Part shown: piece after piece, positions 414 through 44,548 of the stretch
Numbering within the stretch: the stretch's first letter is position 1
Layout: each line of letters opens with the position of its first letter
Assembly: GCA_001817065.1 (NCBI GenBank)
Contig: MHHQ01000025.1
Span: 119,777 to 183,776, forward strand
Source of the DNA: Candidatus Andersenbacteria bacterium RIFCSPHIGHO2_02_FULL_46_16
Lineage (GTDB): Bacteria > Patescibacteriota > Andersenbacteria > UBA10190
Length of the DNA: 64,000 nt
Reading direction: 5' to 3'
The notes under the pieces: generated by a model
Databases searched by the model: none
Seen by the model: only the letters and a program-made list of their open reading frames with translations
What the model was told of the DNA's origin: nothing
Program-made: the position numbers and the translations under genes

Positions 414-651
414 ACATCACATCATGAAATGTCACTGCAGAATAAGCGGGTGGCGGCGCGGGGGTCCCCCACCGAGCGCCAGCAGCCCTGAGCCTGCCTA
501 CCGGTAGGCAGGCTTGCCTACCGGTAGGCAGGCTTGTCGAAGGGCGATGCCGTCGGATGGGGGAGCAGCGCCGACAGACCTGCCAGCCGAAGCCATAGCG
601 AAGGCTGGACCCGTTTCTTGTCTGGTGACTTTTCATAATGTGACACCTATA
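414..651. repeat. Repeat family A copy 1. GC-rich imperfect palindrome with about 23-bp terminal inverted repeats, carrying a 2x21-bp tandem insert (cctaccggtaggcaggcttg)
   Basis: The ends acatcacatcatgaaatgtcac...gtgacttttcataatgtgacacctata are inverted. The core gtcactgcagaataagcgggtggcggcgcgggggtcccccaccgagcgccagcagccctgagc matches the copies at 41389, 44351 (reverse complement) and 23165. GC content is far above that of the flanking DNA. Confidence 0.8.
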
Positions 652-686
652 CTTTGCTCCAGTTACAACCTCTAATAAAAACTATC

Positions 687-2084
687 CTATCGCAAAGTCG
701 AAAACATCGTCCGTAAGTAGACAATTATTTTGGAATTTTGTTGCGGCTTCTCCACCATCTGCTGCAAATTATTTACCACCTCATCATTTTGCCTACTGCC
801 GGAGGACCCATTCTGCAGTTGCCATATGTTGGGTAAACTCGTCTTTCTCACCTGCCTTTTTTCCTCTTTCGCAAATAGTTCCTCCACCATTTTTTCTCCT
901 GGCCGTCGCCCCACCACCTTAATCTTCACATCTTTATCCGGAATTAGATTGTGGCTCCGTATCGCACACTGCGCCACTTCATTCACTGAGATTAAGTCTC
1001 CCATATTCAGCACATAAATAGCACCCTGCGTCATCCTAGTCGCACTCATTATCACTAACTGCGCAGCCTCACGAATTGACATGAAGTACCTTTCCATTCT
1101 CTTATCCGTTATTGTCACCTCGCGTCTTTCTAATACCTGCCTGCTAAACATGGGCAATACCGATCCCTGAGAATTAATCACATTGCCGAATCTTACAATA
1201 CTAAAACTGGTCACCTCCGATCGTCGTTGCCTCACATACATTTCCGCTATCTTCTTTGTTGCTCCCATGACACTGGCCGGATTAACCGCTTTATCCGTTG
1301 ATACTTGCACGAACTTCTCCACCCCATTCCGCGTAGCTGCATCTGCCACATTCTTAGTTCCCAGTACGTTTGTCTTGATCGCCTCGCCCACATATTTCTC
1401 CATGAGATGTACATGCTTATACGCCGCGGCATGAAAGACTATCCTGGGTTTAACTTTTTTCATTATCTCTTCTGTCCGTGTCCGGTCAACCACACTACCC
1501 ATCATCAATTCATATTTTGACTTTTTAACTTTCGCTTCCTTTAATTCTTGTTCCAGCCCATAAACAAGCCACTCCGAATTATCCATTACCACTACCTTCT
1601 TAACTTTAAGTTCTAATAATTGCCTGACAATTTCCGACCCAATTGACCCTGCTCCACCTGTTACAAGCACAATTTTATTTTTATAATATTTCTCCAAACC
1701 GTTTATACTTCTTCGCACTGGCGGTCTACCCAGCCAATCCTCATCCGTCAGCTCTCTCACAGCCTGATACTGCACATCATTATGCCTAATCACCCGCTGT
1801 TCCCGCGGCACAATTCTAATCGGCACTCGATTATTTAAATTAAGCATCAATATTCGTCTGACTAGTGATCCCTCGGCTGACGGAATAGCTATCACCACTT
1901 CATCTACCTTGTACCGGCCAAGCACACCTTCTATTTCTTCAATTTTTCCTAAAATTTTAACATTAGCGCGGCTGATATCATCAATGAATCCCACCACCTC
2001 ACAATTGTGATAGCTATGTTTAATGTCTGCTTCCAATAACCGCCCGGCTATGCCCGCTCCAATTATGATGATTTTCTTTTTCAT
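687..2084 (-). CDS. CapD/PglF/WbpM-family nucleotide-sugar 4,6-dehydratase, soluble two-domain form (polysaccharide biosynthesis protein)
   Basis: N-terminal Rossmann motif IIIIGAGIAGR, a second VTGGAGSIGSE SDR domain, and a YKHV...STDKAVNP catalytic region typical of the CapD/FlaA1 family. The start is moved to MKKK at 2084. Confidence 0.7.
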   Translation of the reverse strand: MKKKIIIIGAGIAGRLLEADIKHSYHNCEVVGFIDDISRANVKILGKIEEIEGVLGRYKVDEVVIAIPSAEGSLVRRILMLNLNNRVPIRIVPREQRVIRHNDVQYQAVRELTDEDWLGRPPVRRSINGLEKYYKNKIVLVTGGAGSIGSEIVRQLLELKVKKVVVMDNSEWLVYGLEQELKEAKVKKSKYELMMGSVVDRTRTEEIMKKVKPRIVFHAAAYKHVHLMEKYVGEAIKTNVLGTKNVADAATRNGVEKFVQVSTDKAVNPASVMGATKKIAEMYVRQRRSEVTSFSIVRFGNVINSQGSVLPMFSRQVLERREVTITDKRMERYFMSIREAAQLVIMSATRMTQGAIYVLNMGDLISVNEVAQCAIRSHNLIPDKDVKIKVVGRRPGEKMVEELFAKEEKRQVRKTSLPNIWQLQNGSSGSRQNDEVVNNLQQMVEKPQQNSKIIVYLRTMFSTLR

Positions 2085-2212
2085 AGTCCATTCCCTATGT
2101 AATATTGTTCGTCCACTATGCCTTTTCTCCAATTATTTGCCTATTCCCCAATATTTACGCATCCGTTCAGAGTGCCCGAAATACGAAAAAAAAGCTATGA
2201 TTATCCTATCCT

Positions 2213-3649
2213 ATGCCACACCGATCTTTTTTTATGCCTGCCGCTCTAATCACCTCCTTCTTGATTCTGCTGATTCTCTCCCTACAATATCCCCTCAGTA
2301 CCACATTCCCCATCGGTGGTGACGCTGCTTTTTATGCCCGTCGCGCTCAGGTCGCTCTACAGTTCTTTGACGATCCCACCGCATCCATCCAAGCCCTTAA
2401 AAATTCGTGGTATCCGCTTTCTCTGGCCATTTTTTCCGCCACCAACATATTGCCGTTGGATTGGCCTAGCCGCTTTACTTGGTCAATGGTCATCGCCCAT
2501 GTCTCCGTAGGAATCTGCTTAGCTTTGCTCCTACGACGCATCGGAGGATGGCCTTCGGCCGCCCTAGTGATGATTATTTGGGCTGTAACAACTACCAGCA
2601 TTAACAGCAATTTTGAAGACGGTACACTCGCGCAATTAATCAGCTTTTCCTTCCTCGCTCTTTTTTTGGAACGCTTTACCGCTGGCGCTAAGTGGTCCGC
2701 CCTCCTCGCACTCATTGCCACGCCATTAACTCACCCCATAACTGGATTAGCACTGCTAGTCAGCCTGCTTGTTACGACTCCCGCGCTTTTTTCTGCCTGG
2801 TCATCACTAACCGCACCACATAAAAAACAGTTACTCCTGATCTGCCCGATCAATTTTCTTCTGCTTCTATTAGTGCTGTTCACCGGTAAATCTGTCTTTT
2901 CTACGTCCAAATATATAATTGGTGTAGCTAAGGACCCCTTCATCAATGTCCTGGTTTCTAGTTATGCCCCCTTTGTTACCCTGGCTCCCCTGGGACTGCT
3001 CCTCTTATTAAGATCTGCTGCTCCGACCACCGCTAAATACATCATTGCTATTCTCTTTAGCCTTTCCGTTATGCTAGCCGGTAATGATTTACTGGAGATT
3101 GCCGTCTGGACACAACGCCTCCTGCCTCTTTTTATTTTTTTTGTTTCTATTTTAGCCTCTTTATCGCTATCGCACATCATTCAAACCGTCTATAAAAGTA
3201 ATTTTTCTCGTGTTCTATTTAGTTTAGTTATCGTAGCCTATTTCTGTACCGCTGCCTGGATAAGCAACAGTCGCGTCTACCGTTATTACGAAAACCCTGC
3301 TAACTATGCCAGGCTGCACCCGGATGAACTGGCCGCCATGTATTGGCTTCGTGACCATTTAACCAAGAATAGTTATATCACTACCTCTGATAAAAACCGC
3401 CATACAGAGTGGCTGCCTGTCATTACTTCCCTGCAGTGGCTCGCTGTCTCACCCGATGATGAATCCCTAATTAACCCCACCAACGATCAGATTGATTCAT
3501 TGACTTATCGCAAACAAAAGTACGTTGCTTATTTTACCCAGCGCGAAAACATCCCCACTCCAGTCTTAGAGTCTCCGGGCCGATATCCTCTGGTCTTTTC
3601 TAATCAATCTGTAGCCGTTTATCATGTACCGCCCTACACCTATGAGTAA
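2213..3649 (+). CDS. Polytopic membrane protein of at least 10 TM segments, possibly a GT-C-type glycosyltransferase or polymerase
   Basis: Long hydrophobic ORF with a C-terminal soluble tail. I recognise no family motif. Confidence 0.45.
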   Translation: MPHRSFFMPAALITSFLILLILSLQYPLSTTFPIGGDAAFYARRAQVALQFFDDPTASIQALKNSWYPLSLAIFSATNILPLDWPSRFTWSMVIAHVSVGICLALLLRRIGGWPSAALVMIIWAVTTTSINSNFEDGTLAQLISFSFLALFLERFTAGAKWSALLALIATPLTHPITGLALLVSLLVTTPALFSAWSSLTAPHKKQLLLICPINFLLLLLVLFTGKSVFSTSKYIIGVAKDPFINVLVSSYAPFVTLAPLGLLLLLRSAAPTTAKYIIAILFSLSVMLAGNDLLEIAVWTQRLLPLFIFFVSILASLSLSHIIQTVYKSNFSRVLFSLVIVAYFCTAAWISNSRVYRYYENPANYARLHPDELAAMYWLRDHLTKNSYITTSDKNRHTEWLPVITSLQWLAVSPDDESLINPTNDQIDSLTYRKQKYVAYFTQRENIPTPVLESPGRYPLVFSNQSVAVYHVPPYTYE

Positions 3650-4019
3650 TAACTTTATCTCACGTCTCGCTGCCTACCTTCTCCTCCTCACTTTTGGCGG
3701 TCTTTTATTGCCTATCCCTAAAGTTTATCTGGCTACCATTCTTCTAGTTAGTTTACTACTTTACTTAGTTAATACAGCCATCACTCATCCATCGACCGTT
3801 CTAATTTTCCTTGTCTTCATCATTATCCCCTTGGTTGCCTTCCAAGTGCCCACTTTTATCCCTGCAACATTGCCTCCCTTGCACCAATTGGCAATCGCCA
3901 CCGCCCTGTGGGGCACGCTAATCAGCCTGCTTGTTTCAATCCTTTCCTTGTCTACCAGTTATATTCGATTACGCTTAGGTCAAACCGTTCCATCTCGGTC
4001 GGATCATGCTCCAAAGTAG
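3624..4019 (+). CDS. Small hydrophobic membrane protein (hypothetical)
   Basis: The ORF is 131 aa with 3-4 predicted TM helices. It overlaps its neighbours at both ends. Confidence 0.25.
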   Translation: MYRPTPMSNNFISRLAAYLLLLTFGGLLLPIPKVYLATILLVSLLLYLVNTAITHPSTVLIFLVFIIIPLVAFQVPTFIPATLPPLHQLAIATALWGTLISLLVSILSLSTSYIRLRLGQTVPSRSDHAPK

Positions 4020-4380
4020 CTAAGTTGGCGACAATCGATAGTTGCTGGCAAAGGCCTATCATTCCGTTGGTCACTCCATGGGGAATATGTAACAAACCAT
4101 AGCAATCTGTACTAAGATAGTATTCTTCAATCTGTCCACCAGTAGACGACTTTTCCCTTCCATCATATAGCACCACCTTGACTGCACCCGTTATGCAAGC
4201 ATAATTCAAGTCCATCTGTTTGTGTTTATGCCAAGCTTTTATCACCCCGTGATATAACGAGGTAAAGTAAATTTCACCGAACTGGCTATATGATTCATCT
4301 GACTTTTTCATCAACTGCCAAACTACACCCCGATCATCTGGGATTTTTTTTAATGTTTTATAAATTACTCCCTCTATCAT
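3952..4380 (-). CDS. RmlC-family cupin, an NDP-4-keto-6-deoxyhexose 3,5-epimerase-like protein
   Basis: PDDRG...F.E...K..GVIKAWHKH...ITGAVKVVLYD aligns with the RmlC core DERGFF...GVLRGLHFQ...RCVRGAIFDVAVD. The gene is co-directional with the rfbF-like gene. Confidence 0.55.
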   Translation of the reverse strand: MIEGVIYKTLKKIPDDRGVVWQLMKKSDESYSQFGEIYFTSLYHGVIKAWHKHKQMDLNYACITGAVKVVLYDGREKSSTGGQIEEYYLSTDCYGLLHIPHGVTNGMIGLCQQLSIVANLATLEHDPTEMERFDLSVIEYNW

Positions 4381-5450
4381 ACCTTCACTTTTATATCATC
4401 GATCATTCGTAGCGTATTCGACATCAATCCTGCCTGCATCATGGCCCGGTAACGCCTTAATGTATAGTAGCCATTAAATTTGCTATCCTCGTTATCAAAA
4501 CCGCGCTTCCTAAAAATTTGCACCAAGTCCTGCACCCCTTGATTAATTGACCATTTGGCTTGCCAGCCAGCTTGCTCTATCTTGTCAAAGCTTACTCGAT
4601 ACGTCCTCTCGTCTCGTGTGCTTTCACTTTTAATGATTATTTTACTGCCTGCTATCACTTGCTGTACTTTCGCGGCAATATCCCGGACTTGCCGGTTATT
4701 CGCTGCCTGACCGATATTAAACGCTTCTCGGCACACTTGCTCGGCAGGCGCTTCCATTAAAAACATAAACGCCTTAGCACAATCCATTACATGCAAATTA
4801 GGCCGCCATGGCGTTCCATCGCTTAAGACCTCTATACGGCCATTTAAATAACCATTGGCCGTCAAATCGTTTACGACTAAATCTAGACGCAACCGAGGCG
4901 AAAAGCCAAAAACTGTGGCATTGCGTAAAATTACTGGCACGAATCCATGGCTGGCCATTCGAACTAGCTCTTTTTCCATCATCACTTTGGACTTAGCATA
5001 GGCCGTTCTCGGATTTACTTTGTCTTTTTCAGTCACCACTTTCGGTCCGCTCGCTCCATAAGTACTGCAGGATGATGAAAATAAAAATCGCTCGATCTTA
5101 GCCTTCTTAGCAATTTCTGCTAATCTGACCCCCGCCTTAAAGTTAATATCGTAAGTCAGCTGCTGATCCAATTCTCCCAGTGGATCGTTGGATAAGCCCG
5201 CCAAATGAATCACCGCTTCACACCCTGCCAAGTCGTCTTTCTCTATGTCACGGATGTCCTTTTTTATTTGGACGGTGGCCGGCAGTCGAGGCACCATTTG
5301 CACATCTTCAAAAATGCCAGCATCAATTCCCACAACCTTATATCCCGCCTCGATCAGCAACCTTGTCAACACCGATCCTATGTAACCTTGGTTACCTGTG
5401 ACCGCTATTTTTCTCTTCCGCTCTGCTCCCAAGTTTTCTTTTGCTGCCAT
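4377..5450 (-). CDS. NAD-dependent epimerase/dehydratase (SDR) of a CDP-sugar pathway
   Basis: VTGNQGYIGSVL Rossmann motif and YAKSK catalytic dyad. It lies between the cytidylyltransferase gene and the cupin epimerase gene. Confidence 0.65.
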   Translation of the reverse strand: MAAKENLGAERKRKIAVTGNQGYIGSVLTRLLIEAGYKVVGIDAGIFEDVQMVPRLPATVQIKKDIRDIEKDDLAGCEAVIHLAGLSNDPLGELDQQLTYDINFKAGVRLAEIAKKAKIERFLFSSSCSTYGASGPKVVTEKDKVNPRTAYAKSKVMMEKELVRMASHGFVPVILRNATVFGFSPRLRLDLVVNDLTANGYLNGRIEVLSDGTPWRPNLHVMDCAKAFMFLMEAPAEQVCREAFNIGQAANNRQVRDIAAKVQQVIAGSKIIIKSESTRDERTYRVSFDKIEQAGWQAKWSINQGVQDLVQIFRKRGFDNEDSKFNGYYTLRRYRAMMQAGLMSNTLRMIDDIKVKV

Positions 5451-6190
5451 AGATTATTTAAGTATTGCACATCCTTTACCGTATTCATCGCATGCCAGAA
5501 TCCATCATGCCGATATTGTCCGAGCTTCTTCCTATCTGCCATTCTAGCTAATCCGTCTTCTAAAGCCTCGCCCACTCGTAAATACTTTAATGCTTCTTGC
5601 TCGAACACCATGAATCCGCCATTAATATATTCCTTCACCTTCGGTTTTTCCGCAAACTTTTTCACTACATCCCTCTTATCCGCCCAGACCTTACCGTAAT
5701 GTGATGACGGATGGGCTACCGTAATTGTTGCCTTAATACCCAAACGCTTTTTTTGTTTATTATGATAGCTGATCAACCTATCTAAATTTACATCACTCAC
5801 ATCATCTCCGTACGACACTAGAAACTGTTTATCCTTAATATATTTAGCCGCTATCAGTACTCTTTCCGCTGTATCTGCCAGCTCTCCCGTTTCAATTAGT
5901 CCTACCTTATAATCCCAGGGCATTTTATCAGTCAACAATTTTATCTCGCCGCCCACTAAGTCCACTTCAACATCATTAGCTGTTTTTACCAGATTAAAAA
6001 AATACTCTCTTATTAAATCACCGCGATAACCTAAACATAACAGGAATTCTTTATAGTCATACTGACCATAGAGGTTCATAATATGAATCAATATCGGCCA
6101 TTCACCCACTCTCACCATTGCTTTCGGTTTAAATTCAGTTTCTTCGTTCATGCGCCAACCACGGCCGCCACATAAAATTATTGTTTTCAT
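5405..6190 (-). CDS. rfbF: Glucose-1-phosphate cytidylyltransferase
   Basis: MKTIILCGGRGWRM...KPKAMV...GEWPILIHIMNLY...FLLCLGYRGDLIREYF closely matches the RfbF/DdhA N-terminus. Confidence 0.8.
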   Translation of the reverse strand: MKTIILCGGRGWRMNEETEFKPKAMVRVGEWPILIHIMNLYGQYDYKEFLLCLGYRGDLIREYFFNLVKTANDVEVDLVGGEIKLLTDKMPWDYKVGLIETGELADTAERVLIAAKYIKDKQFLVSYGDDVSDVNLDRLISYHNKQKKRLGIKATITVAHPSSHYGKVWADKRDVVKKFAEKPKVKEYINGGFMVFEQEALKYLRVGEALEDGLARMADRKKLGQYRHDGFWHAMNTVKDVQYLNNLWQQKKTWEQSGREK

Positions 6191-6541
6191 CTTATCACCT
6201 TAAGCGACGATCCCTCATTCCCGCAAGCTCCTTATTGTGTCTTTCCGTCTTGTCGTCCGAAGCTTTACGCATACGATGAAGCTGTAAAAAAGGTAACGCT
6301 AGAAAGGCAAAACAACAAATTAAAATCAAAATAATTAAGACTGTCATTGCATAGCGAAAGTTTTACACTATGAACCTCCCCGCGGCAAGACCGCGGGGAA
6401 TCATCTAGTTGAATTGATATTTTACGCTTTCCTTTTTACGTTTTTCCTTCTTTGATTATTATCACCTTTTTGCCATACCACACCTGACACTTGAAAATTT
6501 CCGATTTGTATCTACCTCCCACTTTCTAGTATTTTAGTTAT

Positions 6542-7528
6542 ATGAGTAAAATACTCGTCACTGGCGGTGCCGGATTTATTGGTGCCCACGTCGCTACCAA
6601 ACTGCTGGAGCGTGGCGACGATGTGGTTATTATTGATGATTTTAATGACCGCTATGACCCGCGATTAAAACATTTACGCTTTGAACACTTTTTTTCCGGC
6701 AGCCTCAAGCCCAAGTTAGTCACTGGTGATATTCGCGACAATGATCTTATCACGAAACTTTTTGACCAAGAAAAATTCAATCATGTCATTCATTTAGCTG
6801 CTTGGGCAGCCGTTCAAACCAGCATCGATAATCCCTACATATACACTTCTGTGAACGTGGATGGTACCGTTAATGTCTTTGAGGCCGCTCGTCACAACGA
6901 CGTCAAAAACATCGTTTTTGCTTCCAGCTCTTCCGTTTATGGCGGTCGTGATAAAGTTCCGTTCCAAGAAAAAGACGATGTTTCTCGTCCGATCTCACCT
7001 TATGCCGCTACCAAGGCAGCCGGTGAAATTATGTGCGCCACCTGGTATAACCTGTATCAAATCCCGATCAGCGCCCTGCGCTTTTTTACGGTTTATGGCC
7101 CCTGGGGTCGACCTGAAATGGCCATTTTTAAATTCTCTGAAGCTATCCTGCGTGGCCAGCCCTTGTTAATGCGCGGTCATCAAACTATGCGTGACTTTAC
7201 CTTTATCGATGATTGTGTACAGGGAGTCATTAGTGCCTTGGACCATCCGCACCAATTCTCAATTTTCAATTTAGGTGAATCAGACGCCGTGCCTCTGCCT
7301 CGTCTTATTTCCGCCCTGGAGCACTCTTTTAATAAGCCAGCTCTCATTCAAGAGGTTCCCTTACCGCCTGGCGATGTGCCACGTACTCTAGCTGATATTT
7401 CCCTAGCGCAAGCCATGCTGTCCTACCAACCTGTCACTAAAATAGAGGACGGCATAGCTAAATTCACCCAGTGGTATAAAGAGTGGTACATTCCTAACTT
7501 TCTTCCGGATTTAACCAATTCCCTTTAG
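6542..7528 (+). CDS. NAD-dependent epimerase/dehydratase, UDP-glucuronate 4-epimerase-like (GalE superfamily)
   Basis: ILVTGGAGFIGAHV, YAATKAAGE, FFTVYGPWGRPEMA. The gene is divergent from the rfbF operon. Confidence 0.7.
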   Translation: MSKILVTGGAGFIGAHVATKLLERGDDVVIIDDFNDRYDPRLKHLRFEHFFSGSLKPKLVTGDIRDNDLITKLFDQEKFNHVIHLAAWAAVQTSIDNPYIYTSVNVDGTVNVFEAARHNDVKNIVFASSSSVYGGRDKVPFQEKDDVSRPISPYAATKAAGEIMCATWYNLYQIPISALRFFTVYGPWGRPEMAIFKFSEAILRGQPLLMRGHQTMRDFTFIDDCVQGVISALDHPHQFSIFNLGESDAVPLPRLISALEHSFNKPALIQEVPLPPGDVPRTLADISLAQAMLSYQPVTKIEDGIAKFTQWYKEWYIPNFLPDLTNSL

Positions 7529-8232: not shown

Positions 8233-8257
8233 ACTTCCCACAATAACGGTACAATTA

Positions 8258-8505
8258 CTTAGGCGCCATCCAAAAATAACTTGGCCAGATCTCGTTCAAT
8301 ATGCGTCGAGATACGGCTTTTCCAATTGCCTGCCGGCCATAGCTTTCTTGACCACCGTAGCTTTAGCGAAGGTGGTAGCGACGGCTGGAGCGAACCACTC
8401 ACCGTAGCCAAGCTACGGTGAGTGGTTCGTGATTGAAGAAAAATCGTAAATTGGTGCATAGTGAACGAGAGATGGTCAAGTTATTTTGAGACGGTGACTT
8501 AAGCT
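8258..8505. mobile_element. MITE-like element B copy 1, with about 35-bp terminal inverted repeats and internal hairpins
   Basis: The inverted ends are cttaggcgccatccaaaaataacttggccagatctcg at one side and cgagagatggtcaagttattttgagacggtgacttaag at the other. The internal stem gaaccactcaccgtag/ctacggtgagtggttc is 15 bp and perfect. There is a second copy at 56767. The element fills the whole divergent intergenic gap between the gene that ends at 8232 and the gene that starts at 8511. Confidence 0.75.
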
Positions 8506-8510
8506 TATTT

Positions 8511-13740: not shown

Positions 13741-13747
13741 TGTTTGC

Positions 13748-15700: not shown

Positions 15701-15704
15701 ATAC

Positions 15705-23138: not shown

Positions 23139-23164
23139 ACTAAAGAACCTTCCTGCCTATGGAA

Positions 23165-23330
23165 GTCACATTATGAAATGCCACAAATATAGTGACGGGC
23201 CCTGTCGGCGCTGCACCCCCACCCGACGGCTTCGGCCTGCCAGGCGGGCAGCCTGCAGGCGCTCGGTGGGGGTCCCCCGCGCCGCCACCCGTTTATTTAA
23301 GAGTGGCATTTCATAATGTGACATCTATAT
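23165..23330. repeat. Repeat family A copy 2, divergent and shorter, in the same orientation as copy 4
   Basis: gtcacattatgaaatgccac...ggcgctcggtgggggtcccccgcgccgccacccg...gtggcatttcataatgtgac. Confidence 0.65.
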
Positions 23331-24123: not shown

Positions 24124-24165
24124 CCCTGTACTCGCTAAGTGTACCGGGGTTATTTTTTATTTTTC
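24124..24165 (+). terminator. Rho-independent terminator
   Basis: cccctgtac/gtaccgggg stem (8 of 9 bp) followed by ttattttttatttttc. Confidence 0.55.
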
Positions 24166-24166
24166 A

Positions 24167-24227
24167 CCAAAATTAGTGATCCCGCCCTTGGCACGACGCA
24201 CATTTTGAGTGAAAAATAATCCGCCGG
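24167..24227. repeat. Direct-repeat motif C copy 1, about 60 nt
   Basis: ccaaaattagtgatcccgcccttggcacgacgcacattttgagtgaaaaataatccgccg is about 85% identical to 24844..24904. Confidence 0.55.
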
Positions 24228-24843
24228 AGTCCGCCATATTGGCAAACGAAGATGGATACCATGAATGTCACGTGCTATATCTTAAAACTTCCCGCCTAAT
24301 TCTTAATAAACTCATCAACTAAACAAATAAGAGCGCCTTCGGCGCACCATGAATTCTGAGCGAAATAATAACCCCGCACTAACATTACCTTCTCAGTCAA
24401 ACATTACTCAAAGGAACCATCAAATTAAGTAACCGCTAGCGCTATGCGCGGGCTTCATGAGCCACTCCTTTACCTCGTCCGATCTTGTACTATTATATCA
24501 AACTGCATTCGGCAAAATCTAAGTCCCTTTCTATATCCGCACAGTGCGTCAACGTTCCTTACAATGTTTATTACTTTTGTCGACAGAACACTAAAGCGAA
24601 TGCATTAAATATCAGTTCACCCCACGTATTTTAATTAAATCAGTCCATTTATCTCTTTTTATGGGCTTAGCATAAGCCCTAAACAAAGTTATCCACCAAA
24701 TTCTGTCAAAATCATTTGACATAATCATTGGCGCTGCTACTATTAAATTATCAATTCGTTCTTTATTTCTCTCTTAGAGCCTTACCCTTCACTTTTCCTC
24801 TTTTTACTCTCTTCCTCCTAGGCTCTTTTCTTTTTGTTTTTCT

Positions 24844-24904
24844 CCAAAATAAGTGATCCCGCCCTTGGCGGGACACGCATTTTGACAGAAAAACAATCCG
24901 CCGT
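24844..24904. repeat. Direct-repeat motif C copy 2
   Basis: ccaaaataagtgatcccgcccttggcgggacacgcattttgacagaaaaacaatccgccg. It contains the hairpin cccgcc-ctt-ggcggg. Confidence 0.55.
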
Positions 24905-28507: not shown

Positions 28508-28522
28508 GTCAGTGTCTAAAGC

Positions 28523-29266: not shown

Positions 29267-29292
29267 ATGCCACTCTGACTTATTTTATATTT

Positions 29293-30618: not shown

Positions 30619-30619
30619 A

Positions 30620-32985: not shown

Positions 32986-33025
32986 ACTTTCATTATGTCT
33001 CGGAAAAACAATCCCGCCAAATGAC

Positions 33026-35167: not shown

Positions 35168-35173
35168 CCCTCG

Positions 35174-37849
35174 TTATCTCTTACGCCGGTAGTAAGTCAT
35201 AGTGTTTGATCCGTTCTCTATACCTTTAACGGCCTGCCAATTCCTGGCTAACCCCGCCTCAATTTCCTCATATTCCATCAAAAACGAGAATCCTGTTTGC
35301 TGCTCTAGTAATAACCATTCAGCATCGCGGTATGCTTGCAGCATTTCTTCTACCGTCGGCAAAAATGCATTCAGCCTGGCCGTATCTGTACGCGTAAATC
35401 CGTACGCATACCAACGCGGATGAGCGATATCGAGCGATACCTCATGTCCTGATAAAAATGGTATAGCCGCTGCACCAGTAAATATCGGCTCATCTATTGG
35501 TATATTCTGTTTTGCCCAATTTGCCGCCTCTTGTAGAGATGTCAGCTGGAATGTTCCCGTATGTTCATGCACGTAAGTTACATAATTCGCCACAAATAAT
35601 GACCATCCCAGTACCCCGATAAATCCCAGTGCTAATGTCCTCTGGCTTACTTTATTAACTATTGCACTATGGCTGCCTTGTCCTTGTGTTAATCTTCGCC
35701 ATCCTTCCGGTATTGCTAAACCTGCGATAATCACCAACGGCGGCAGAAACTCGCCGATATAATTAGCATGAAATTTTATCCAGTTATGATAGAAAAAGAC
35801 TAGTCCAACCACCCATACGAATGGCAATAACCAGCCCAGGAGATTCCAGCGTCCCTCTGATTTTAGCTGGTTACCAAGCCTATCGATCTTCCCCGCCGCC
35901 AATCCGTCCGCCAGGGTACCTCGATATTCTAATAATTCTTCCTTGCCCAACCTCTCCGTGTCATCTTTATTATTTCTTATTTTTTCATTTTTATTCTCTC
36001 TAACTCCAGACGGCCAGGCAGCCATAAATACAATTACTAATAACATCGCCCACCATAAGCGATACATGCCGAACACCATTATGCTGCTGCCTTCATACTC
36101 TTGAAAAAACGACCACGCCCAGCTATATACCATTACCGGTATAATCCAGAATAGTTTTTGCACGACGTTCTGTCGCCAGCCTAATCCACCCTGCCACCAT
36201 TCCATTTGACCAACTAGAGAACTTGCCAATCGCTCTCCCGCGAAACCCAAACCTAGCACAGCTAACATGATTAAAGGCAGGGACTCCCGGAAAAATGGCG
36301 TCATTCCTCGTATCGAATAGGCTCGCACTTGTTCCCGTTCGGATTCTTCTACGGCGGTAATACTATCCTCCACTGAATTAAATCCAGTTGCTTCCCATAA
36401 CCCAGCCTGACCATAAATTAACATTGCAACGCCTAAAAAAACTGCTAATACGATCACAAACCCCGCACCGACTAATAATAAACTCTGGATTTTTTGTCGT
36501 CCCGTCTTACTGCCAATCAATATTACCAATAATGGCACTAAACCTGTGGCTAGAATGCTTTTGCGCGATACCACCCCTAATCCCAACAATGCCCCCGCCG
36601 CTATTAACCACGCCTTGCCTGTTACCCTGTATTTTCTTTCCATACTCACCTGGCTCACGTACATATCCCTAGTTCCCAGCAGCAAAGCAGCTATTCCAGA
36701 CACGGCAAAGAAAATCGCTAGCGACTGTGTATGCACGTATATATTAAACACTACCGTTACACCCAGCAGCGCCCAGGTCGTAGCAACCGATAGTCCGACT
36801 TTTTTACTCCATAATTCTCGGCCAATAATATACATCGGCCACATCGTCATTGCGCCAATCACCACCGACGACAAGCGTCCCACAAAAATTGATGTGCCGC
36901 CCAACCATTCCCATAGCGCAATCCACAAAACTACTAACGGTGCTTTAACATACCCATCTCCGCCCGCCAATTTACCTTTAAGCAGCGTAGCCGCATCGTA
37001 TAAATAATTTCCCTCATCATTAGTCAGCGGCAGCTCCATCGCATATAAAATTCTAGCGACTAGTGCCAGCACAAACAATGTCACCAACCATCTCGCCACC
37101 TGCCAACGCGATTTAGCGCTTACCGCTTTACTCTTAATGCCTACGGTCACTGCCAAACAAATCCCCACCAGGAGCAGGGACTGCATAGCCACCCGTCCCC
37201 ACAAACCATAAGTCGCCCTGGCTTCATACCAGGTCTCTCTAAAATACTGCACTGCCCGCCAGCCTTCACTTCCCCATGCCACATACAATGGCACCTTATA
37301 TGCTGTGCCAAAAGCTAGGTCCATTTTCACTTTACCTCCTCTGGCCAGCTCTGTATCAGATATTTCCCCTGTCATTCCCCGCCAAATATAAGCGGAGCCG
37401 CGATGATAAGGATCCCTGTTATCAACGTCCACTGTCACCGCTTTTCCAGGCATCCCGTCTGGTAATTCTAGTAAAACAATAAATGTTATATCCTTGGCTT
37501 GCTCCACCGGATCAAAATTAAACTGGTACATTTGATTATCTCCAAGCTCTCTAGTACTTACCTCCACTTCACGTAAAATTTCTGACAGCTTATCCAACCG
37601 ACGCAAAGTAAACTTTACTTGTCCGGTATTCCCCCGCCCAGAATAAGTAGCGAACATTACCAAGACACTGGATAAATTATCACGCTCGCCCACAAAAGTT
37701 TGCCCCACCACCACTCCACCCAACATTTCCCCCGCATTCGCGGTATATCTCTCCGCCTGATATCCTTCTAATTCCGTAGTACCCAGCCATACCACCATCC
37801 CCAGCACCGCCAGCACACCGATCATCAGGCTGATGAAACCAATTTTCAT
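35174..37849 (-). CDS. Large GT-C-type membrane glycosyltransferase (ArnT-like) with an N-terminal extracytoplasmic domain
   Basis: The ORF is 891 aa. A NDEGNY motif precedes a multi-TM core. Confidence 0.5.
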   Translation of the reverse strand: MKIGFISLMIGVLAVLGMVVWLGTTELEGYQAERYTANAGEMLGGVVVGQTFVGERDNLSSVLVMFATYSGRGNTGQVKFTLRRLDKLSEILREVEVSTRELGDNQMYQFNFDPVEQAKDITFIVLLELPDGMPGKAVTVDVDNRDPYHRGSAYIWRGMTGEISDTELARGGKVKMDLAFGTAYKVPLYVAWGSEGWRAVQYFRETWYEARATYGLWGRVAMQSLLLVGICLAVTVGIKSKAVSAKSRWQVARWLVTLFVLALVARILYAMELPLTNDEGNYLYDAATLLKGKLAGGDGYVKAPLVVLWIALWEWLGGTSIFVGRLSSVVIGAMTMWPMYIIGRELWSKKVGLSVATTWALLGVTVVFNIYVHTQSLAIFFAVSGIAALLLGTRDMYVSQVSMERKYRVTGKAWLIAAGALLGLGVVSRKSILATGLVPLLVILIGSKTGRQKIQSLLLVGAGFVIVLAVFLGVAMLIYGQAGLWEATGFNSVEDSITAVEESEREQVRAYSIRGMTPFFRESLPLIMLAVLGLGFAGERLASSLVGQMEWWQGGLGWRQNVVQKLFWIIPVMVYSWAWSFFQEYEGSSIMVFGMYRLWWAMLLVIVFMAAWPSGVRENKNEKIRNNKDDTERLGKEELLEYRGTLADGLAAGKIDRLGNQLKSEGRWNLLGWLLPFVWVVGLVFFYHNWIKFHANYIGEFLPPLVIIAGLAIPEGWRRLTQGQGSHSAIVNKVSQRTLALGFIGVLGWSLFVANYVTYVHEHTGTFQLTSLQEAANWAKQNIPIDEPIFTGAAAIPFLSGHEVSLDIAHPRWYAYGFTRTDTARLNAFLPTVEEMLQAYRDAEWLLLEQQTGFSFLMEYEEIEAGLARNWQAVKGIENGSNTMTYYRRKR

Positions 37850-37893
37850 AATAATTATTATACTATGTTCTGCCCCCAGTAGACTCTTTCATT

Positions 37894-38880
37894 CTACCAA
37901 TATTCGTTCTTATTCTGCCGATAAAAAGCTACTGTTCGTCTTAACCCTTCTTCCAGAGATACCCCCGGTTCCCAATGAGTCACCTGTTTGATTTTAGCAG
38001 TATCGGCCACATAATCACCCGTTTCATTTTTTTCATAATCCTCCGGCCATGGCACAGACTCTTTTTCTCCCTGACCCACCGCCTCAATTACCGCATCTAC
38101 CATCTCCGTAAAAGTAATTCCCCGACCGCTGCCGATGTTATATGCCTCACCATCTTGGCCTGCTACTATTAGTCGCATCATCGCCTCAACAATATCATCA
38201 ATATAAATGTAATCTCTTAGCTGATTGCCATCACCGTAAATCTGAATCTTCTTTCCTTCCATCGCTTGCCGGATGAACCATCCGACAATCGCATATTTGC
38301 TGTGTTTCATTTGCTGTCTCGGTCCGTATGGATTAGGTATCCGCAGCGACATGCCATGCACCCCGAAGTTATGCGCGTAATAAGCGTAATATTTTTCCCC
38401 TAATAATTTGTGAATTCCATACAACGACAATGGTTGCGTCTCATGACTTTCTTTAACCGGCACTTCCTTAATTTTTCCGTATACCATGCGCGATGAAGAA
38501 AATAAGATTCGCGCTCCAGGGGCTTGCTCTTTGACTGCCTCCAGTACAATCAAATTTCCCCGCCCATTAAAGTCCAAATCAACAAAAGGTTTTTCCTTGG
38601 CATCTAAATAACCCACCTGACCTGCTAAATGAAAAATAAAGTCCTTTCCTCGCACTGTTTCAGTCACTGTCTCCTCGTCCGTAATATTGCCGTTCACTAA
38701 TTCAACCCGATCTTCGATCTCTTTGATATTAAATTTATTGCCTCCGTAGGGTGTCAGTAATGCATCTAATATACTCACCCGCGCTCCTACCTCCACCAGC
38801 CGATGTGTTAATGTACTGCCTATAAACCCCAAGCCGCCCGTGACAAGAACTTTCTTACCACCAAAATCTCTTTTAAACAT
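37894..38880 (-). CDS. NAD-dependent epimerase/dehydratase (GalE/UXS-like SDR)
   Basis: VLVTGGLGFIGSTL, the SSSRMVYG...YGIHK catalytic region, and NPYGPRQ. Confidence 0.7.
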   Translation of the reverse strand: MFKRDFGGKKVLVTGGLGFIGSTLTHRLVEVGARVSILDALLTPYGGNKFNIKEIEDRVELVNGNITDEETVTETVRGKDFIFHLAGQVGYLDAKEKPFVDLDFNGRGNLIVLEAVKEQAPGARILFSSSRMVYGKIKEVPVKESHETQPLSLYGIHKLLGEKYYAYYAHNFGVHGMSLRIPNPYGPRQQMKHSKYAIVGWFIRQAMEGKKIQIYGDGNQLRDYIYIDDIVEAMMRLIVAGQDGEAYNIGSGRGITFTEMVDAVIEAVGQGEKESVPWPEDYEKNETGDYVADTAKIKQVTHWEPGVSLEEGLRRTVAFYRQNKNEYW

Positions 38881-38935
38881 GCTCTAAGAGTAAAACTTCG
38901 CCCCTGCTTTTACAATCAGAGGTGTTGCTAAATTT

Positions 38936-40087
38936 TCATTGCTTTAAGCCCTTGTCATATTTCAAATACAGCTCATTATACTGTCGCATAATCTCTGCCC
39001 AATTGTATTGCTTGGCCATTTCCCTGCTCCTCTGGCCCATCTCGCTGCGCAAATTCTCATCATCGATCAATTGAACTAGGTCATTCGCTAATTTACTGCT
39101 ATCGTCCCCCCTGATTAAATAACCGTTCCAGCCATCACTTACCAACTCATTATTTCCTCCCACATCACTGGCCACTACCGGTAAACCACAACCCATCGCC
39201 TCCAGAATGACTGATGGCATCCCTTCTGACAACGAGGTCAACACAAATATATCTGCTTGCTGATAGGATTTTTCCAGTTCGTCATATGGCACAGTTCCGA
39301 CATACTTTATTTGCTCAGCTACCCCTAATGCCTGAGCGACATCATCCAACTTTTTACGATGCTCACCGCTGCCCACCACCTCAACCTCGAACGCCTCATG
39401 TACTTTCTTTTGCACTTCCGGTAAAGATCGGATCACCCTTTCAAAACCTTTACGCGGGATTAAACGGCCTATGAATAATACTTTTACCTTTTTGTTTCTA
39501 GGCCGCTCTACGGGCTTAAACCGATCCCATTCAACCCCATTTGGGATAACCACGAACTCGCTCGTGGGATCCACTATCTTACCTAGCCTTGCTAACTCTT
39601 CCGAACAAACCGTTCTAAACTTTGCCCTTTGCCAAATTGCTCGGAGCAGCGGCGTTATCAAGGGATAAATCCTTTTATACCGCGACAAATTAGCGCCGGG
39701 TAAATCAGACCCGCCGAAATAGACGGCGTACGGTATGCCTCGCACCATGTTCAGCATCCAGGCCACCCAGCCAGCCGGTACAGCAAAATATGCTTGGACA
39801 AAATCAACCCGGTGACGACCAGTAAAAATTAAACTGTATATCAGTGCAGACAAACCAAACGTCACCAGCTCCCATTGCGCACAAAAATCCTTATAACGCC
39901 TGATGGCCGGTATGCGAATTACGAGCGCCCCTTCCACCTGCTCCCGTTTCGGTAAATCGCGATACTGCGAAGTAATTAATGTCACCTCGTGGCCCGCCTG
40001 CACCAAATATCTTATCGCGTATTTAGTGACTGTAGACCCACCCCCGCCGATCGGCGGAAATTCATTGTTTATCAGCAGCAGTTTCAT
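38936..40087 (-). CDS. Glycosyltransferase family 4
   Basis: E(x7)E region SEGMPSVILEAMGCGLPVVASDVGG. Confidence 0.75.
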   Translation of the reverse strand: MKLLLINNEFPPIGGGGSTVTKYAIRYLVQAGHEVTLITSQYRDLPKREQVEGALVIRIPAIRRYKDFCAQWELVTFGLSALIYSLIFTGRHRVDFVQAYFAVPAGWVAWMLNMVRGIPYAVYFGGSDLPGANLSRYKRIYPLITPLLRAIWQRAKFRTVCSEELARLGKIVDPTSEFVVIPNGVEWDRFKPVERPRNKKVKVLFIGRLIPRKGFERVIRSLPEVQKKVHEAFEVEVVGSGEHRKKLDDVAQALGVAEQIKYVGTVPYDELEKSYQQADIFVLTSLSEGMPSVILEAMGCGLPVVASDVGGNNELVSDGWNGYLIRGDDSSKLANDLVQLIDDENLRSEMGQRSREMAKQYNWAEIMRQYNELYLKYDKGLKQ

Positions 40088-40173
40088 GCCTAGTTGCTAC
40101 AATTATTCTAAAACAAACCATAAATATTTCTGCTATTCAAAACATGTTTGCTTTATAATCACTCCCCAGAATG

Positions 40174-41136
40174 CTATATTTTATCCCACCCTATTGTCTC
40201 CTTTATACTGTAAGCTTTCTTCTGCGCATAATACGTTTTGGCCACCACGTCAGCCAGCACACCAGTCAATAAAAACTGAAAACCTAGTAGCACGAGCAAC
40301 ACCGCTAACAACGGCAAGGAGCTATTTGCAAAACCGGTAATCTTCAGTAACCAGATGATTAATATTGAACTGCCCAATATAAAACCAGCGAAGATAAAGC
40401 CTATCCCGATTGCCCCGAAAAAATGCATCGGCCGCGCTGCGTACTGCACCCAGAATTTAACCACGATTAAATCAAGAAATCCTTTCAACTTCTTCTTCAC
40501 CGAGTAATTTGTTCGACCATGTTCCCTCGGATAATGGTTAACCTCTAATTCTCCAACCCTAAATCCTTTCCAAGACAGTAACGCTGTTATATAACGATGC
40601 ATCTCACCATACAACTCTAGGTCTATCAGCACCTCCCGCCGATATATTTTCAAGCTGCATCCATGATCATGGATTTTTTCGGCCGTCATCCATCGGTGCA
40701 CCACGTTGCCAATTTTGCTCAGCAACACCATACCGCCATTATCCTGACGATGCCGGCGCCAGCCTGATACCACATCTAAATCCTTGCCAAGCAGATGCTT
40801 CATCATCGCTGGGATATCCTTAGGATCATTCTGTAAATCAGCATCCATCACAATGACAAATTCGCCCTGGACACGATCAAATCCAGCCGACCACGCTGCT
40901 GTCTGTCCAAAGTTTCGTCTGAATTCAATCATCTTTACACACTGGTCCTTCTGCACGAGCTCCCTCATTATTTTATTAGTATCGTCATCGCTGCCGTCAT
41001 CAATAAAGATGATCTCCCACCCGCCATCCATCTGATCCATGACTTCTTTAGTCGCTTGATACAACGACCGCAAATTATCCTGTTCGTTATGGGCAGGAAT
41101 CACTAATGAATATTTCATATTATCTGCAGTATACAC
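40174..41136 (-). CDS. GT2 polyprenyl-phosphate glycosyltransferase (DPM1/ArnC/GtrB-like)
   Basis: SLVIPAHNE...IFIDDGSDD...VVMDADLQ DXD motifs and two C-terminal TM helices. Confidence 0.75.
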   Translation of the reverse strand: MYTADNMKYSLVIPAHNEQDNLRSLYQATKEVMDQMDGGWEIIFIDDGSDDDTNKIMRELVQKDQCVKMIEFRRNFGQTAAWSAGFDRVQGEFVIVMDADLQNDPKDIPAMMKHLLGKDLDVVSGWRRHRQDNGGMVLLSKIGNVVHRWMTAEKIHDHGCSLKIYRREVLIDLELYGEMHRYITALLSWKGFRVGELEVNHYPREHGRTNYSVKKKLKGFLDLIVVKFWVQYAARPMHFFGAIGIGFIFAGFILGSSILIIWLLKITGFANSSLPLLAVLLVLLGFQFLLTGVLADVVAKTYYAQKKAYSIKETIGWDKI

Positions 41137-41388
41137 TACTAAAAATAGATTAAGGACACACTGTAAACCTTATTAATAGCCATGTCAAGCCATAGTCTTG
41201 TGCAGGGCAATCGCATTGAATTGAGGGCTCAAATAGGGCTGCGAAAGCAAAGGGGTGATTTTCGTCCTGCTCAGAAAATAAGCAAACTTGCTCCGATTGG
41301 TCCCTAAGCCATTAATTGCAGTGCGATTGCCCTGTAGTCTTGTGAGATCGTACGTTCATACTTATTTACAATTTTACGTAATATAAAA

Positions 41389-41587
41389 ACATCACATCAT
41401 GAAATGTCACTGCAGAATAAGCGGGTGGCGGCGCGGGGGTCCCCCACCGAGCGCCAGCAGCCCTGAGCTTGTCGAAGGGCGATGCCGTCGGGTGGGGGAG
41501 CAGCGCCGACAGGCCTGCCAGCCGCAGCCATAGCGAAGGCTGGACCCGTTTTTTGTCTGGTGACTTTTCATGATGTGACACCTATAG
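41389..41587. repeat. Repeat family A copy 3
   Basis: Its roughly 160-nt core is the exact reverse complement of copy 4. Confidence 0.85.
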
Positions 41588-41686
41588 TAATAGTAATTAT
41601 TGCTTAAAAAAAACTCCTCGTAGAATTAAATCTATTAAGGAGCACAATGCGCCCTGAAAAAAATTCGTGACCAACAACATCTTGTA

Positions 41687-41950
41687 CTATTTGGGTTCCT
41701 TTCCATCCCGGTAAATGGACATTTTCCCTAATGCTGCAAAAAGCTCGCCTTTCATTTCTGGCCCAAATCCCTTTGTCATGGTTATTACGTGTATCTTGGT
41801 ATTCAGTAAATCGCCGATCGTATAAATATGCAGTCGTTCCAATAAACCTAAGATTCTCCCCGCTAGGTATTTACTCTTAAACTGTAAATCAGTCACCGAC
41901 ATTTGCAGTAATTCCGTTAACTCCTCCTTAGTATGTCCGACTATAGCCAT
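41687..41950 (-). CDS. Stand-alone RNA polymerase alpha C-terminal-domain-like (HhH) protein
   Basis: LQMSVTDLQFKSKYLAGRILGLLERLHIYTIGDLL resembles the RpoA alpha-CTD segment LELSVRSANCLK..GI.TIGDLV. Confidence 0.45.
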   Translation of the reverse strand: MAIVGHTKEELTELLQMSVTDLQFKSKYLAGRILGLLERLHIYTIGDLLNTKIHVITMTKGFGPEMKGELFAALGKMSIYRDGKEPK

Positions 41951-42057
41951 GCTGTTTCTCCACTAATTTTGTTCGGCTGATTTAAAAAAGAACGCACTCC
42001 ACCAAACTAATACCTTACCATTAATTACTTAATATTTCTGTCACCAATCGACATCCC

Positions 42058-42930
42058 TTACAGACTAATCTTTCTTAAATAATCGCCATAGCCGCTTTTC
42101 ATTAAGGGCTTGGCCAGTTTTTTTAATTGTCTTTTACCGATAAATCCCATCCGGAAAGCTACTTCTTCAATACAGCCAACCTTCAACCCTTGTCGCTCCT
42201 CTACGGTCTGCACAAACATACCTGCCTGTAACAGGGAATGGTGCGTTCCGGAATCAAGCCAGGCTGTCCCGCGACTCAGCACAGACACTTTCAGCTTCCC
42301 GCGTTTTAAGTATTCCTTATTTACATCAGTAATCTCCAATTCGCCTCGTTGTGAAGGTTTTATCCTGCTGGCAATATTTAACACCTCATTATCGTAAAAA
42401 TATAACCCGGGCACCGCATATGAAGATTTAGGTTTCTTTGGCTTTTCCTCAATTGAGATCACATTACCTTCCTGATCAAATTCTGTAACACCATAGCGTT
42501 CCGGATCGGACACGTGATAGGCAAATACTATCCCTCCGCCGTTATCTTCAACCTGTTGCCGCGCGTTCCGCAAAATAATCGGGATATCATTGCCATAAAA
42601 AATATTATCGCCCAATATTAATGCCGCTGGCCCATCTCCAATAAATCTGCGCCCGATAACAAACGCCTGCGCCAGCCCCTCTGGTTTCGGCTGTTTGGCG
42701 TATTTGATTCTCATGCCTAACTGCGATCCGTCTCCAAATAACTTTTTATAGAACGGTAAATCGTGTGGCGTGGAAATTATTAAAACCTCCCTGATCCCAC
42801 CAAACATCAAGGTCGATAGCGGATAGTAAACCATTGGTTTATCATGCACTGGCAGCAATTGTTTGCTGACACTTATTGTTAATGGGTGCAACCTGGTCCC
42901 CGACCCACCTGCTAATATAATTCCTTTCAT
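42058..42930 (-). CDS. rmlA: Glucose-1-phosphate thymidylyltransferase
   Basis: [18 protein letters not shown]...KQLLPV...GLAQAF over its full length. Confidence 0.85.
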
Positions 42931-43253
42931 ACGCTACTAATACACTATAACCATAAACCAGTCAAGCCTAAGACCGGTAACTGCTCACTGGTCGAGAAAG
43001 ACTATTGGCTAAGATAAGACGTTATAATTTTTCACTTTTAAGAAAACCTTCTTTTTCTGGCTCTAAATATGGCTTAACCTAGTAATCCACCCTTAACCTG
43101 TGAACAGTTACTAAGACCGCTTAAGTCAGTATTCTTAAAATATCAACCTAAACAATGCTAGCCCACACAACTGACTAAATAAAACCGTAGTAAACCAGTA
43201 AGTCTGTTAGATTAAGAGCCTTACCTGTCAAAACTCTGCGCCATTGCTCCCTT

Positions 43254-44228
43254 TTAACTATAATGGATATGTTTCATTAAGTAGTTTTTGACGTAATCAC
43301 TGATGGCTTCCTCTATAGTCATAAAGGGCTTTTGGAACCCAACACCTCGCAATTTAGTAATTTCTGCCTGCGTAAAATCCTGGTATTGGTCTTTTAACTC
43401 TTCCGGCAAATCAATGTATTTGATCTCAACCTTTCTCCCGGCAGCTTTAAACATCGCTCTCGCCACATCATTCCATGTCCTTGCCACACCGGTGCCCACA
43501 TTGAACACCCCGCAGGCTTGTTTATTATCCAAAAAATGCACGGTTGCATCCACCGCATCCTTCACATAAATAAAGTCTCTCTTTTGCTCTCCGTCACCAA
43601 ACTTTTCATTATTTGATTTATACAACTCAATCACTCCGTCTTTTTGCATTTGCTCGAACTTCTTGGCAATTACGCTGCGCATAGCACCTTTATGATATTC
43701 ATTGGGACCAAACACATTGAAATACCTGATTCCTACTACTTGGTCTAGATAACCTCCGTCTCGCGCCCAAATATCTACCAGCAACTTTGACCGGCCATAG
43801 TCATTAAGCGGCTTTAACCGATCAAACAAATCGTGATCATCACTATATCCCTCACTTCCATCACCATATGTTGCACCGCTTGATATATAAACACATCGCA
43901 CCGCTCGATCAACACACCACCGGACGACTTCCTGCGTAAAATCAATATTAATGTCCTCAAACAACGCCCAGTCTCGTTCGATTGTTGACGTAATGGCTGC
44001 CAGATGAAAAACCGCTTCAACTTTTTCTTGATCAAACAAGCCTTCCTTAAGACCCTTTCTAAAACCCGCACCGTCTATTAACTGCTCATACTTAAGCGCT
44101 GATAAATTATGTTCCTTTTCGTCATGGTCCAATTTATCGACCACCAGCAAATCTGATCTTCCTCTTTTATTCAAAGTGCCCACTAATGCACTGCCAATAA
44201 AACCTGCTCCACCCGTGATAATAATCAT
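43254..44228 (-). CDS. hldD: ADP-L-glycero-D-manno-heptose 6-epimerase
   Basis: MIIITGGAGFIGSALV...RYFNVFGPNEYHKGAMRSV...YQDFTQAEITKLRGVGFQKPF aligns along the full length with HldD/RfaD. Confidence 0.8.
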   Translation of the reverse strand: MIIITGGAGFIGSALVGTLNKRGRSDLLVVDKLDHDEKEHNLSALKYEQLIDGAGFRKGLKEGLFDQEKVEAVFHLAAITSTIERDWALFEDINIDFTQEVVRWCVDRAVRCVYISSGATYGDGSEGYSDDHDLFDRLKPLNDYGRSKLLVDIWARDGGYLDQVVGIRYFNVFGPNEYHKGAMRSVIAKKFEQMQKDGVIELYKSNNEKFGDGEQKRDFIYVKDAVDATVHFLDNKQACGVFNVGTGVARTWNDVARAMFKAAGRKVEIKYIDLPEELKDQYQDFTQAEITKLRGVGFQKPFMTIEEAISDYVKNYLMKHIHYS

Positions 44229-44350
44229 AAATAAATATTTTGCCAATCAACACCCCAAAGCCATATTAACATATCCCTCCCTCCCGTAAATGGAGCCCCA
44301 TCCCGCCCCCTGGGTGGGCTAGCGAAATCCCGCGTAGCAGCCAACTATAG

Positions 44351-44548
44351 ACATCACATCATGAAAAGTCACCAGACAAAAAACGGGTCCAGCCTTCGCT
44401 ATGGCTGCGGCTGGCAGGCCTGTCGGCGCTGCTCCCCCACCCGACGGCATCGCCCTTCGACAAGCTCAGGGCTGCTGGCGCTCGGTGGGGGACCCCCGCG
44501 CCGCCACCCGCTTATTCTGCAGTGACATTTCATGATGTGACACCTATA
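44351..44548. repeat. Repeat family A copy 4, inverted relative to copy 3
   Basis: 100% identical to the reverse complement of the core of copy 3. Confidence 0.85.

Follow-up and report, generated by a model that had tools for sequence, protein, structure and literature searches.

What are the GC-rich palindromic repeats that recur between the genes of a Candidatus Andersenbacteria contig, and do the two of them that stand as an inverted pair move the three genes between them? We addressed this question in a 64,000-nt stretch of Candidatus Andersenbacteria bacterium RIFCSPHIGHO2_02_FULL_46_16 (contig MHHQ01000025.1, positions 119,777 to 183,776). This whole 64-kb stretch is referred to as the window, and positions are those of the window unless another locus is named. 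The host belongs to the candidate phyla radiation (CPR)/Parcubacteria and is represented by metagenome-assembled genomes (MAGs) from Rifle aquifer groundwater. Exact matching of its proteins led to contig MHHU01000044.1 of GCA_001817145.1, with proteins named Candidatus Andersenbacteria bacterium RIFCSPHIGHO2_12_FULL_46_9; Parcubacteria group bacterium GW2011_GWA2_45_14 is a sister to this assembly. We consider it probable (about 85%) that the repeats, here called family A, are a non-autonomous DNA transposon, or MITE (miniature inverted-repeat transposable element), of this Candidatus Andersenbacteria population. Imperfect terminal inverted repeats (TIRs) enclose one (subfamily A2) or two (subfamily A1) GC-rich hairpin modules. 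The element inserts at TA and duplicates it, and has spread to at least 22 sites. In the proposed mechanism, movement would occur in trans, through a TA-targeting DDE transposase of the IS630/Tc1-mariner or IS5/IS427 type.

A profile built from 14 full-length copies detected four family A copies in the window and no degenerate extra copies. Together with repeat finding, this placed all four where a first-pass annotation, made from the letters alone, had put palindromic repeats. The refined limits (element, then flanking TA) are:

Copy 1: 411-649, plus strand, A1, 239 nt; TA at 409-410 and 650-651.
Copy 2: 23160-23327, minus strand, A2, 168 nt; TA at 23158-59 and 23328-29.
Copy 3: 41386-41584, plus strand, A1, 199 nt; TA at 41384-85 and 41585-86.
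Copy 4: 44348-44546, minus strand, A1, 199 nt; TA at 44346-47 and 44547-48.

Family A elements ranged from 168 to 239 nt in size. Their TIRs are 19-25 nt long, imperfect, and placed around a GC-rich hairpin. A 19-nt TIR core (TCACATYATGAAAWGYCAC) was present at both termini of all complete copies, and imperfect complementarity extended inward to ~43 nt. The element ends read 5'-TAGAYRTCACATYATGAAAWGYCAC..., with the general form TAGAYR.../...YRTCTA. GC content was 59-61% in the elements and 75% in the core, compared to 45% in the window. The GC contrast reported earlier is thus borne out, but the host is not really AT-rich as had been stated. The only open reading frames (ORFs) overlapping the elements were spurious read-throughs of their GC-rich sequence or neighbouring genes whose starts had been over-extended; family A has no coding capacity.

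To establish the extent of the family, we used the invariant core GGCGGCGCGGGGGNCCCCCACCGAGCGCC to scan contigs of JGI metagenomes and obtained 24 loci. Overlapping loci were 99.99-100% identical and therefore represent one population. After removal of duplicates, 18 further insertion sites with unrelated flanks remained, extending the initial four copies to at least 22 sites. Most sites are intergenic, between co-directional genes, and one lies inside an ORF. The copies fall into two subfamilies, with variants that include the following:

Subfamily A1: 199 nt; copies 1, 3 and 4 and six others; ends TAGACATCAC...GTGACACCTA; two hairpin modules.
Subfamily A2: 168 nt; copy 2 and eleven others; ends TAGATGTCAC...GTGACTTCCA; a different apex and one hairpin module.
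Variant at L056: chimera of an A1 TIR and an A2 core.
Variant at L058: lacks the apex.
Variant at L066: has a different second module.

We observed that A2 copies at 12 sites with unrelated flanks were 99-100% identical, indicating a very recent A2 burst. For the same reason copy 2, which indeed lies between two GNAT genes, is not the degenerate copy it had been taken for; it is a typical A2 member, of the younger subfamily, and its different apex and missing second hairpin module are those of A2. Copy 1 carries the tandem palindromic insert described for it, although its two units (494-511 and 514-531, at the hairpin apex) are 20 nt each rather than 21. A sister copy at another site (L070) has one such unit, which indicates that the variant bearing the insert transposed as well. 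Copy 3 lies between an 87-aa ORF and a GT2 gene, and its left terminal TAGA is mutated to AAAA. A look-up of the neighbour gene of copy 1, which has a TTG start, found no record. Elsewhere, an A1 copy (L050, 895-1101) stands ~100 nt upstream of the start of an EF-Tu-like gene, identified by eye from its N-terminal translation.

Scans of other collections gave nothing beyond chance. A TIR scan of GTDB species representatives (185,579 genomes, a collection that excludes the host species) returned 42 unrelated single hits, compared to an estimated ~35 expected by chance. Viral contigs scanned with the TIR and the core gave no match, nor did plasmids and phages when the element was used as a BLAST query.

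The evidence for insertion at TA comes from three observations. First, TA was present on both sides of every complete copy, and the flanks beyond it were unrelated. Second, the empty site of copy 3 was recovered in three assemblies (L083, L084 and L085; 97% RmlA identity, ~90% nucleotide identity), where it reads AATTACTATTGC-CA-TATTACGTAAAATTG (in short, ...ACTATTGC-CA-TATTACG...). The occupied site in the window reads, on the reverse strand, AATTACTATTAC-TA-[199 nt]-TA-TATTACGTAAAATTG (in short, ...ACTATTAC-TA-[199 nt]-TA-TATTACG...). Upon subtraction of the element and one TA, the two sites had the same length. Third, at L091 an A2 copy lies within a reading frame, and removal of the copy with one TA (170 nt) joined the upstream 90 codons to the downstream open frame, restoring an ORF of 211 aa whose product has a helix-turn-helix (HTH) and a weak Sigma70_r2 match. 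Taken together, these data indicate that the element inserts at TA and that the target-site duplication is TA.

Presence and absence in relatives agreed with this picture, with copies 3 and 4 missing in relatives of 79-97% RmlA identity. Copy 4 was missing in four of them (L083, L086, L087 and L088), where divergence of the spacer prevented recovery of an exact empty-site junction. For copy 2, a further empty site was sought via its GNAT neighbour, a protein without relatives in the database. The MITE reading offered in the first-pass annotation is supported by TIRs, a TA duplication, numerous unrelated sites and empty sites in relatives.

We also assessed candidate sources of transposase. An insertion sequence (IS) of the IS630 family is present in the same genome (L089, 10536-11755; HTH_32/29/23 and DDE_3 domains, with an A7 frameshift site). 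It has a TA duplication within CTAG and lies 4.3 kb from an A2 copy, which indicates that TA-targeting enzymes are present in the host. The HTH ORF beside the A2 copy was considered as a disrupted transposase but proved to be the 211-aa HTH/sigma-like gene interrupted by the MITE. Long inverted repeats detected in the search for a second TIR pair belong to two other mobile elements of this genome: an IS66-family IS (L063, 1551-3105; 27-nt TIRs) and a serine-recombinase region (L054, 4280-5903), where the gene for a large serine recombinase has ends that overlap perfect inverted repeats of 100 nt. The interrupted gene at L089/L091 lies near LAGLIDADG-like, STIV B116-like, TrmB and UDG genes, and the region around this A2 copy looks like an integrated mobile island.

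The position of the copies suggests possible effects on the host. The window copies lie between co-directional genes and are therefore probably transcribed within operon RNAs. A very stable hairpin in such polycistronic transcripts could act in processing or attenuation. The element ends also carry predicted outward sigma-70-like sites, with a -35 GTGAC(T/A) in the TIR, a 17-nt spacer, and a -10 (TATAGT, TATACT or TATATT) put together from the end of the element, the duplicated TA and two bases of the flank. Copy 4 is located ~100 nt upstream of hldD, and its predicted outward site faces this gene across that distance. Judged by these motifs, the ends could serve as outward promoters.

Several observations weigh against the transposon reading. 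The exact empty site comes from one locus, at which the occupied copy has a mutated terminus and the relative has CA rather than TA. Restoration of the L091 ORF has an estimated chance probability of ~1 in 20. The cognate transposase that the first-pass annotation proposed to look for was not found: no second family A TIR pair enclosing an ORF was present in the window and all fetched loci, and no autonomous element with matching TIRs was present in the window and fetched loci, GTDB representatives or viral contigs. The IS630-family element at L089, the sole IS630 found in the sampled sequence, has TIRs (TA|GTACCGCATTCTTTTAATT...) unrelated to those of family A. Finally, the promoter-like sites are weak (9-10 of 12 consensus matches) and regionally not enriched over shuffles.

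A different account places selection on the GC-rich hairpin modules rather than on the TIRs. The modules might be a host-factor or RNase motif with a regulatory role, captured by several MITE families of this reduced CPR genome; alternatively, the hairpin might be needed for a single-strand, hairpin-dependent transposition without a resident transposase. One observation in its favour is a 32-nt hairpin (CTGCCRGCCGYAGCCWTRGCGAAGGCTGGA) common to A1 and to an otherwise unrelated repeat, family B (described below), at 88% identity. The stem of this module covaries (CCAGCC/GGCTGG vs CCACC/GGTGG) around a conserved loop, GYAGCYNTRGCGAA. The main hairpin, moreover, is maintained through compensatory changes. 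We regard this account as unlikely.

It is less likely still that family A is a structured RNA gene or cis-element (a small RNA, or a REP/BIME-like mRNA stabiliser or terminator) kept for its function, with its spread being secondary. Folding gives this proposal its appeal. As the first-pass annotation had predicted, the halves of the element pair, and the whole element folds as a single long hairpin; the minimum free energy of copy 3 was -105.2 kcal/mol on the plus strand (z = -6.1). At 9 of the 54 pairs in the consensus hairpin, A1 and A2 differ by compensatory double changes, a covariation that comes from two lineages and hence amounts to few events. The TIR has changes from C-G to U-A and from U-A to C-G, whereas those of the core include U-A to A-U. 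The long hairpin is maintained across subfamilies through compensatory changes, which fit selection for TIR symmetry or for the hairpin, and equally palindrome correction during replication. Further points for an RNA are the T6 run that follows a hairpin in A1, the location of all four window copies between co-directional genes, and the 32-nt module held in common with family B.

Other data point away from a dedicated RNA gene. Searched against Rfam 15, the window had no hit at the gathering score, and in L065 and L067 no hit fell on an element even at E ≤ 10. The minus strand of copy 3 also folded strongly (-95.4 kcal/mol, z = -5.7), although the plus strand was better by ~10 kcal/mol. Orientation relative to co-directional flanking genes showed no bias (~6 sense, ~7 antisense, from crude ORF calls). 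In addition, the same operon positions are empty in close relatives, one copy disrupts an ORF, and TIRs with a TA duplication are features of transposons and not of REPs. These results go against the structured small RNA or REP/BIME element that had been proposed, and family A continues to be best described as a MITE.

Copies 3 and 4 raise the separate question of whether they form a unit with the genes between them. Repeat finding showed that copy 3 (41392-41588) and copy 4 (44344-44540) are an inverted pair of 197 nt, 98% complementary (3 mismatches implied) and 2755 nt apart, so the identity exceeds the ~160 nt at 100% noted before. Their only differences are in the 3 nt immediately outside TCACATCATGAAA at one end or at both. 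The genes between them are:

41687-41950, minus strand: 87-aa ORF.
42058-42930, minus strand: rmlA.
43254-44246, minus strand: hldD-like epimerase.

All three genes that had been listed as bracketed are present, but the alpha-CTD-like label given to the 87-aa ORF had no Pfam support. A composite mobile or invertible unit, in which the 197-nt inverted repeats move or flip hldD, rmlA and the 87-aa ORF, would explain the near-identical inverted repeats 2.8 kb apart; family A also coincides with an alternative contig join elsewhere (L097). We consider such a unit very improbable. In relatives without both elements (L083-L088), hldD, rmlA and the 87-aa ORF keep their order and strand within the same sugar-nucleotide operon, a heptose/rhamnose operon that also has gmhA-, hldE- and gmhB-like genes outside the bracket. 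This indicates that copies 3 and 4 are two independent spacer insertions and not a composite or recently mobilised segment. The flanking elements are non-coding and encode no transposase. The bracketed genes share their strand with nearly all neighbours, as do most long ORFs of the window (minus strand), and window GC skew is uniform (negative in every 1-kb bin, about -0.07 to -0.40, mostly -0.2 to -0.4). Moreover, no inversion of the 2.8-kb segment was found: six of six assemblies have one orientation, which offers nothing for the inversion polymorphism suggested at 41.4-44.5 kb. The L097 join, in turn, is possibly an assembly chimera. Judged by gene order and strand, the bracketed genes are host genes rather than cargo, and the two MITE copies are separate insertions into intergenic spacers of the operon. 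In principle, the pair is a recombination substrate.

We observed an unusual interior in copy 4. Next to the TIR core, all interior-oriented A1 copies have ACA...CAC except copy 4, which has GTG...TGT. On the plus strand, copies 3 and 4 share their ends and have opposite interiors, the interior of copy 4 being the exact reverse complement of that of copy 3. The break points of the flip fall inside TCACATCATGAAA/TTTCATGATGTGA, a perfectly inverted pair of 13 nt. Read most simply, the interior of copy 4 flipped in situ, which could have occurred by recombination or by replication template-switching between the 13-nt TIR cores. Because the two interiors are exactly identical, copy 4 probably arose recently and locally from copy 3.

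In the join at L097 (8219-8438), the left flank of the L070 site and the left half of its copy run into copy 1's right half, followed by the right flank of copy 1. Either two A1 copies recombined in some cells or the contig is a chimera. The surroundings of copies 3 and 4 also vary. Beside copy 3, a 164-nt sequence (41190-41353) contains a 16-nt inverted repeat (41203-41218 / 41319-41334), and at the corresponding spot L083 (7375-8379) has ~1 kb that includes an opposite-strand gene of 212 aa, making this a strain-variable spot. Beside copy 4, a GC-rich, internally palindromic sequence of ~105 nt (44590-44695) is missing from L083 and L086 and may be another inserted element.

An assembly artefact behind the identity of copies 3 and 4 and their inverted placement has almost no probability: family A copies do show apex truncations with flank loss in GW2011_GWA2_45_14 and N-gaps in DNQH01 and MHHV01, and contigs do terminate inside elements, but six independent assemblies covering the rmlA locus (L001-L006) all have the pair, and it is complete and concordant in ENA ERZ4903125, ERZ27254759 and ERZ4903070 and NCBI GCA_001817145.1, which represent different samples and pipelines. 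Apparent internal deletions and insertions in L003 and L005 were rejected as runs of N.

The assembly defects are nevertheless common elsewhere. In GW2011_GWA2_45_14 / LCKH01 / Ga0075963, truncation at the hairpin apex or close to it affects many family A copies (L051, L057, L061, L062, L068, L069, L072, L074, L089 and L095). In the copies compared with sister assemblies, which have the sequence complete, flank was also lost (~70-100 nt where measured). The N-gaps of DNQH01 and MHHV01 are at the same place. Most likely the apex truncations arose systematically, as artefacts of assembly or curation. At the L061 cut, the adjoining sequence reads by eye like a tRNA gene without its 3' part. Family A hairpins therefore corrupt public MAG assemblies through apex truncations, N-gaps, contig breaks and possibly chimeric joins, and gene calls beside them need care.

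Besides family A, the window contains at least two or three further families that are MITE-like. Family B (8258-8505 and 56767-57038) is MITE-like, ~250-280 nt long, with TIRs of ~45 nt (…GGCRCC…AAATAACTTGRCCAGATCTCGTTCAAT…); its flanks suggest a TTA duplication, and further copies are present in L056, L060, L061, L066, L071 and L072. A third MITE-like element of 85 nt (45518-45602; TA at 45516-17 and 45603-04) lies between two minus-strand genes and has perfect 16-nt inverted repeats, TAGACATGTTGCGAAA, with the flanking TA included. Its empty site in L083 reads ...AATCACAC-TA-TCATCTT..., which indicates that it, too, duplicated a TA on insertion. A 73-nt direct repeat (24154-24226 and 24831-24903; 86% identity) lies in the long spacer that follows the second GNAT gene and has, at least in its first copy, an inner inverted repeat, TTATTTTTCACCAAAA...TTTGAGTGAAAAATAA, at 24157-24219.

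The small genomes of CPR/Patescibacteria are considered streamlined, and the recently active family A, together with the other MITE-like families, shows that proliferating non-coding mobile DNA persists in them. Full-text literature searches found no description of MITEs in CPR/Patescibacteria. Family A is mechanistically unsurprising; its use lies in CPR genome annotation and as a warning of assembly errors.

We compared family A with known small repeats. It resembles REP/BIME elements as a set of GC-rich extragenic palindromes with mosaic hairpin modules. REPs are palindromes of ~20-40 nt without TIRs or target duplications, whereas family A has TIRs of 19-25 nt and a TA duplication. REPs are associated with Y1 (RAYT) transposases, and no Y1 transposase family was among the Pfam annotations in those parts of the fetched loci that have them. 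RUP of Streptococcus pneumoniae and ERIC/IRU of enterobacteria are small, palindromic, non-coding and mainly intergenic repeats that insert at TA (PMC2229807), all of which holds for family A. RUP, which IS630-Spn1 mobilises, additionally inserts inside other genes and inside IS elements (PMC2229807). The TIRs of RUP are those of the resident IS630-family element; in contrast, the family A TIRs are unrelated to those of its resident IS630.

The closest parallel is Correia/NEMIS of Neisseria, a non-coding repeat of 100-200 nt with TIRs of ~24-26 nt, TA termini and a TA duplication (PMC2229807, PMC10969869). Correia elements form a long hairpin, occur in length subtypes that differ by an internal module, have outward promoters and RNase III cleavage in transcripts, and have no known cognate transposase (PMC2229807, PMC10969869); in-situ inversion has also been reported (PMC10969869). 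Family A is similar in its anatomy, its predicted promoter-like ends, the one copy with a flipped interior, and the lack of a cognate transposase in our searches. It differs in that its TIR and core sequences are unrelated, its core is far more GC-rich than the host, and its host is a CPR bacterium. Functionally, family A is a bacterial MITE of the Correia/ERIC/RUP type, and by sequence it is none of these. Its biology (a TA-targeting MITE, a long hairpin, possible promoters) follows known precedents, which makes it an ordinary element in an unusual host.

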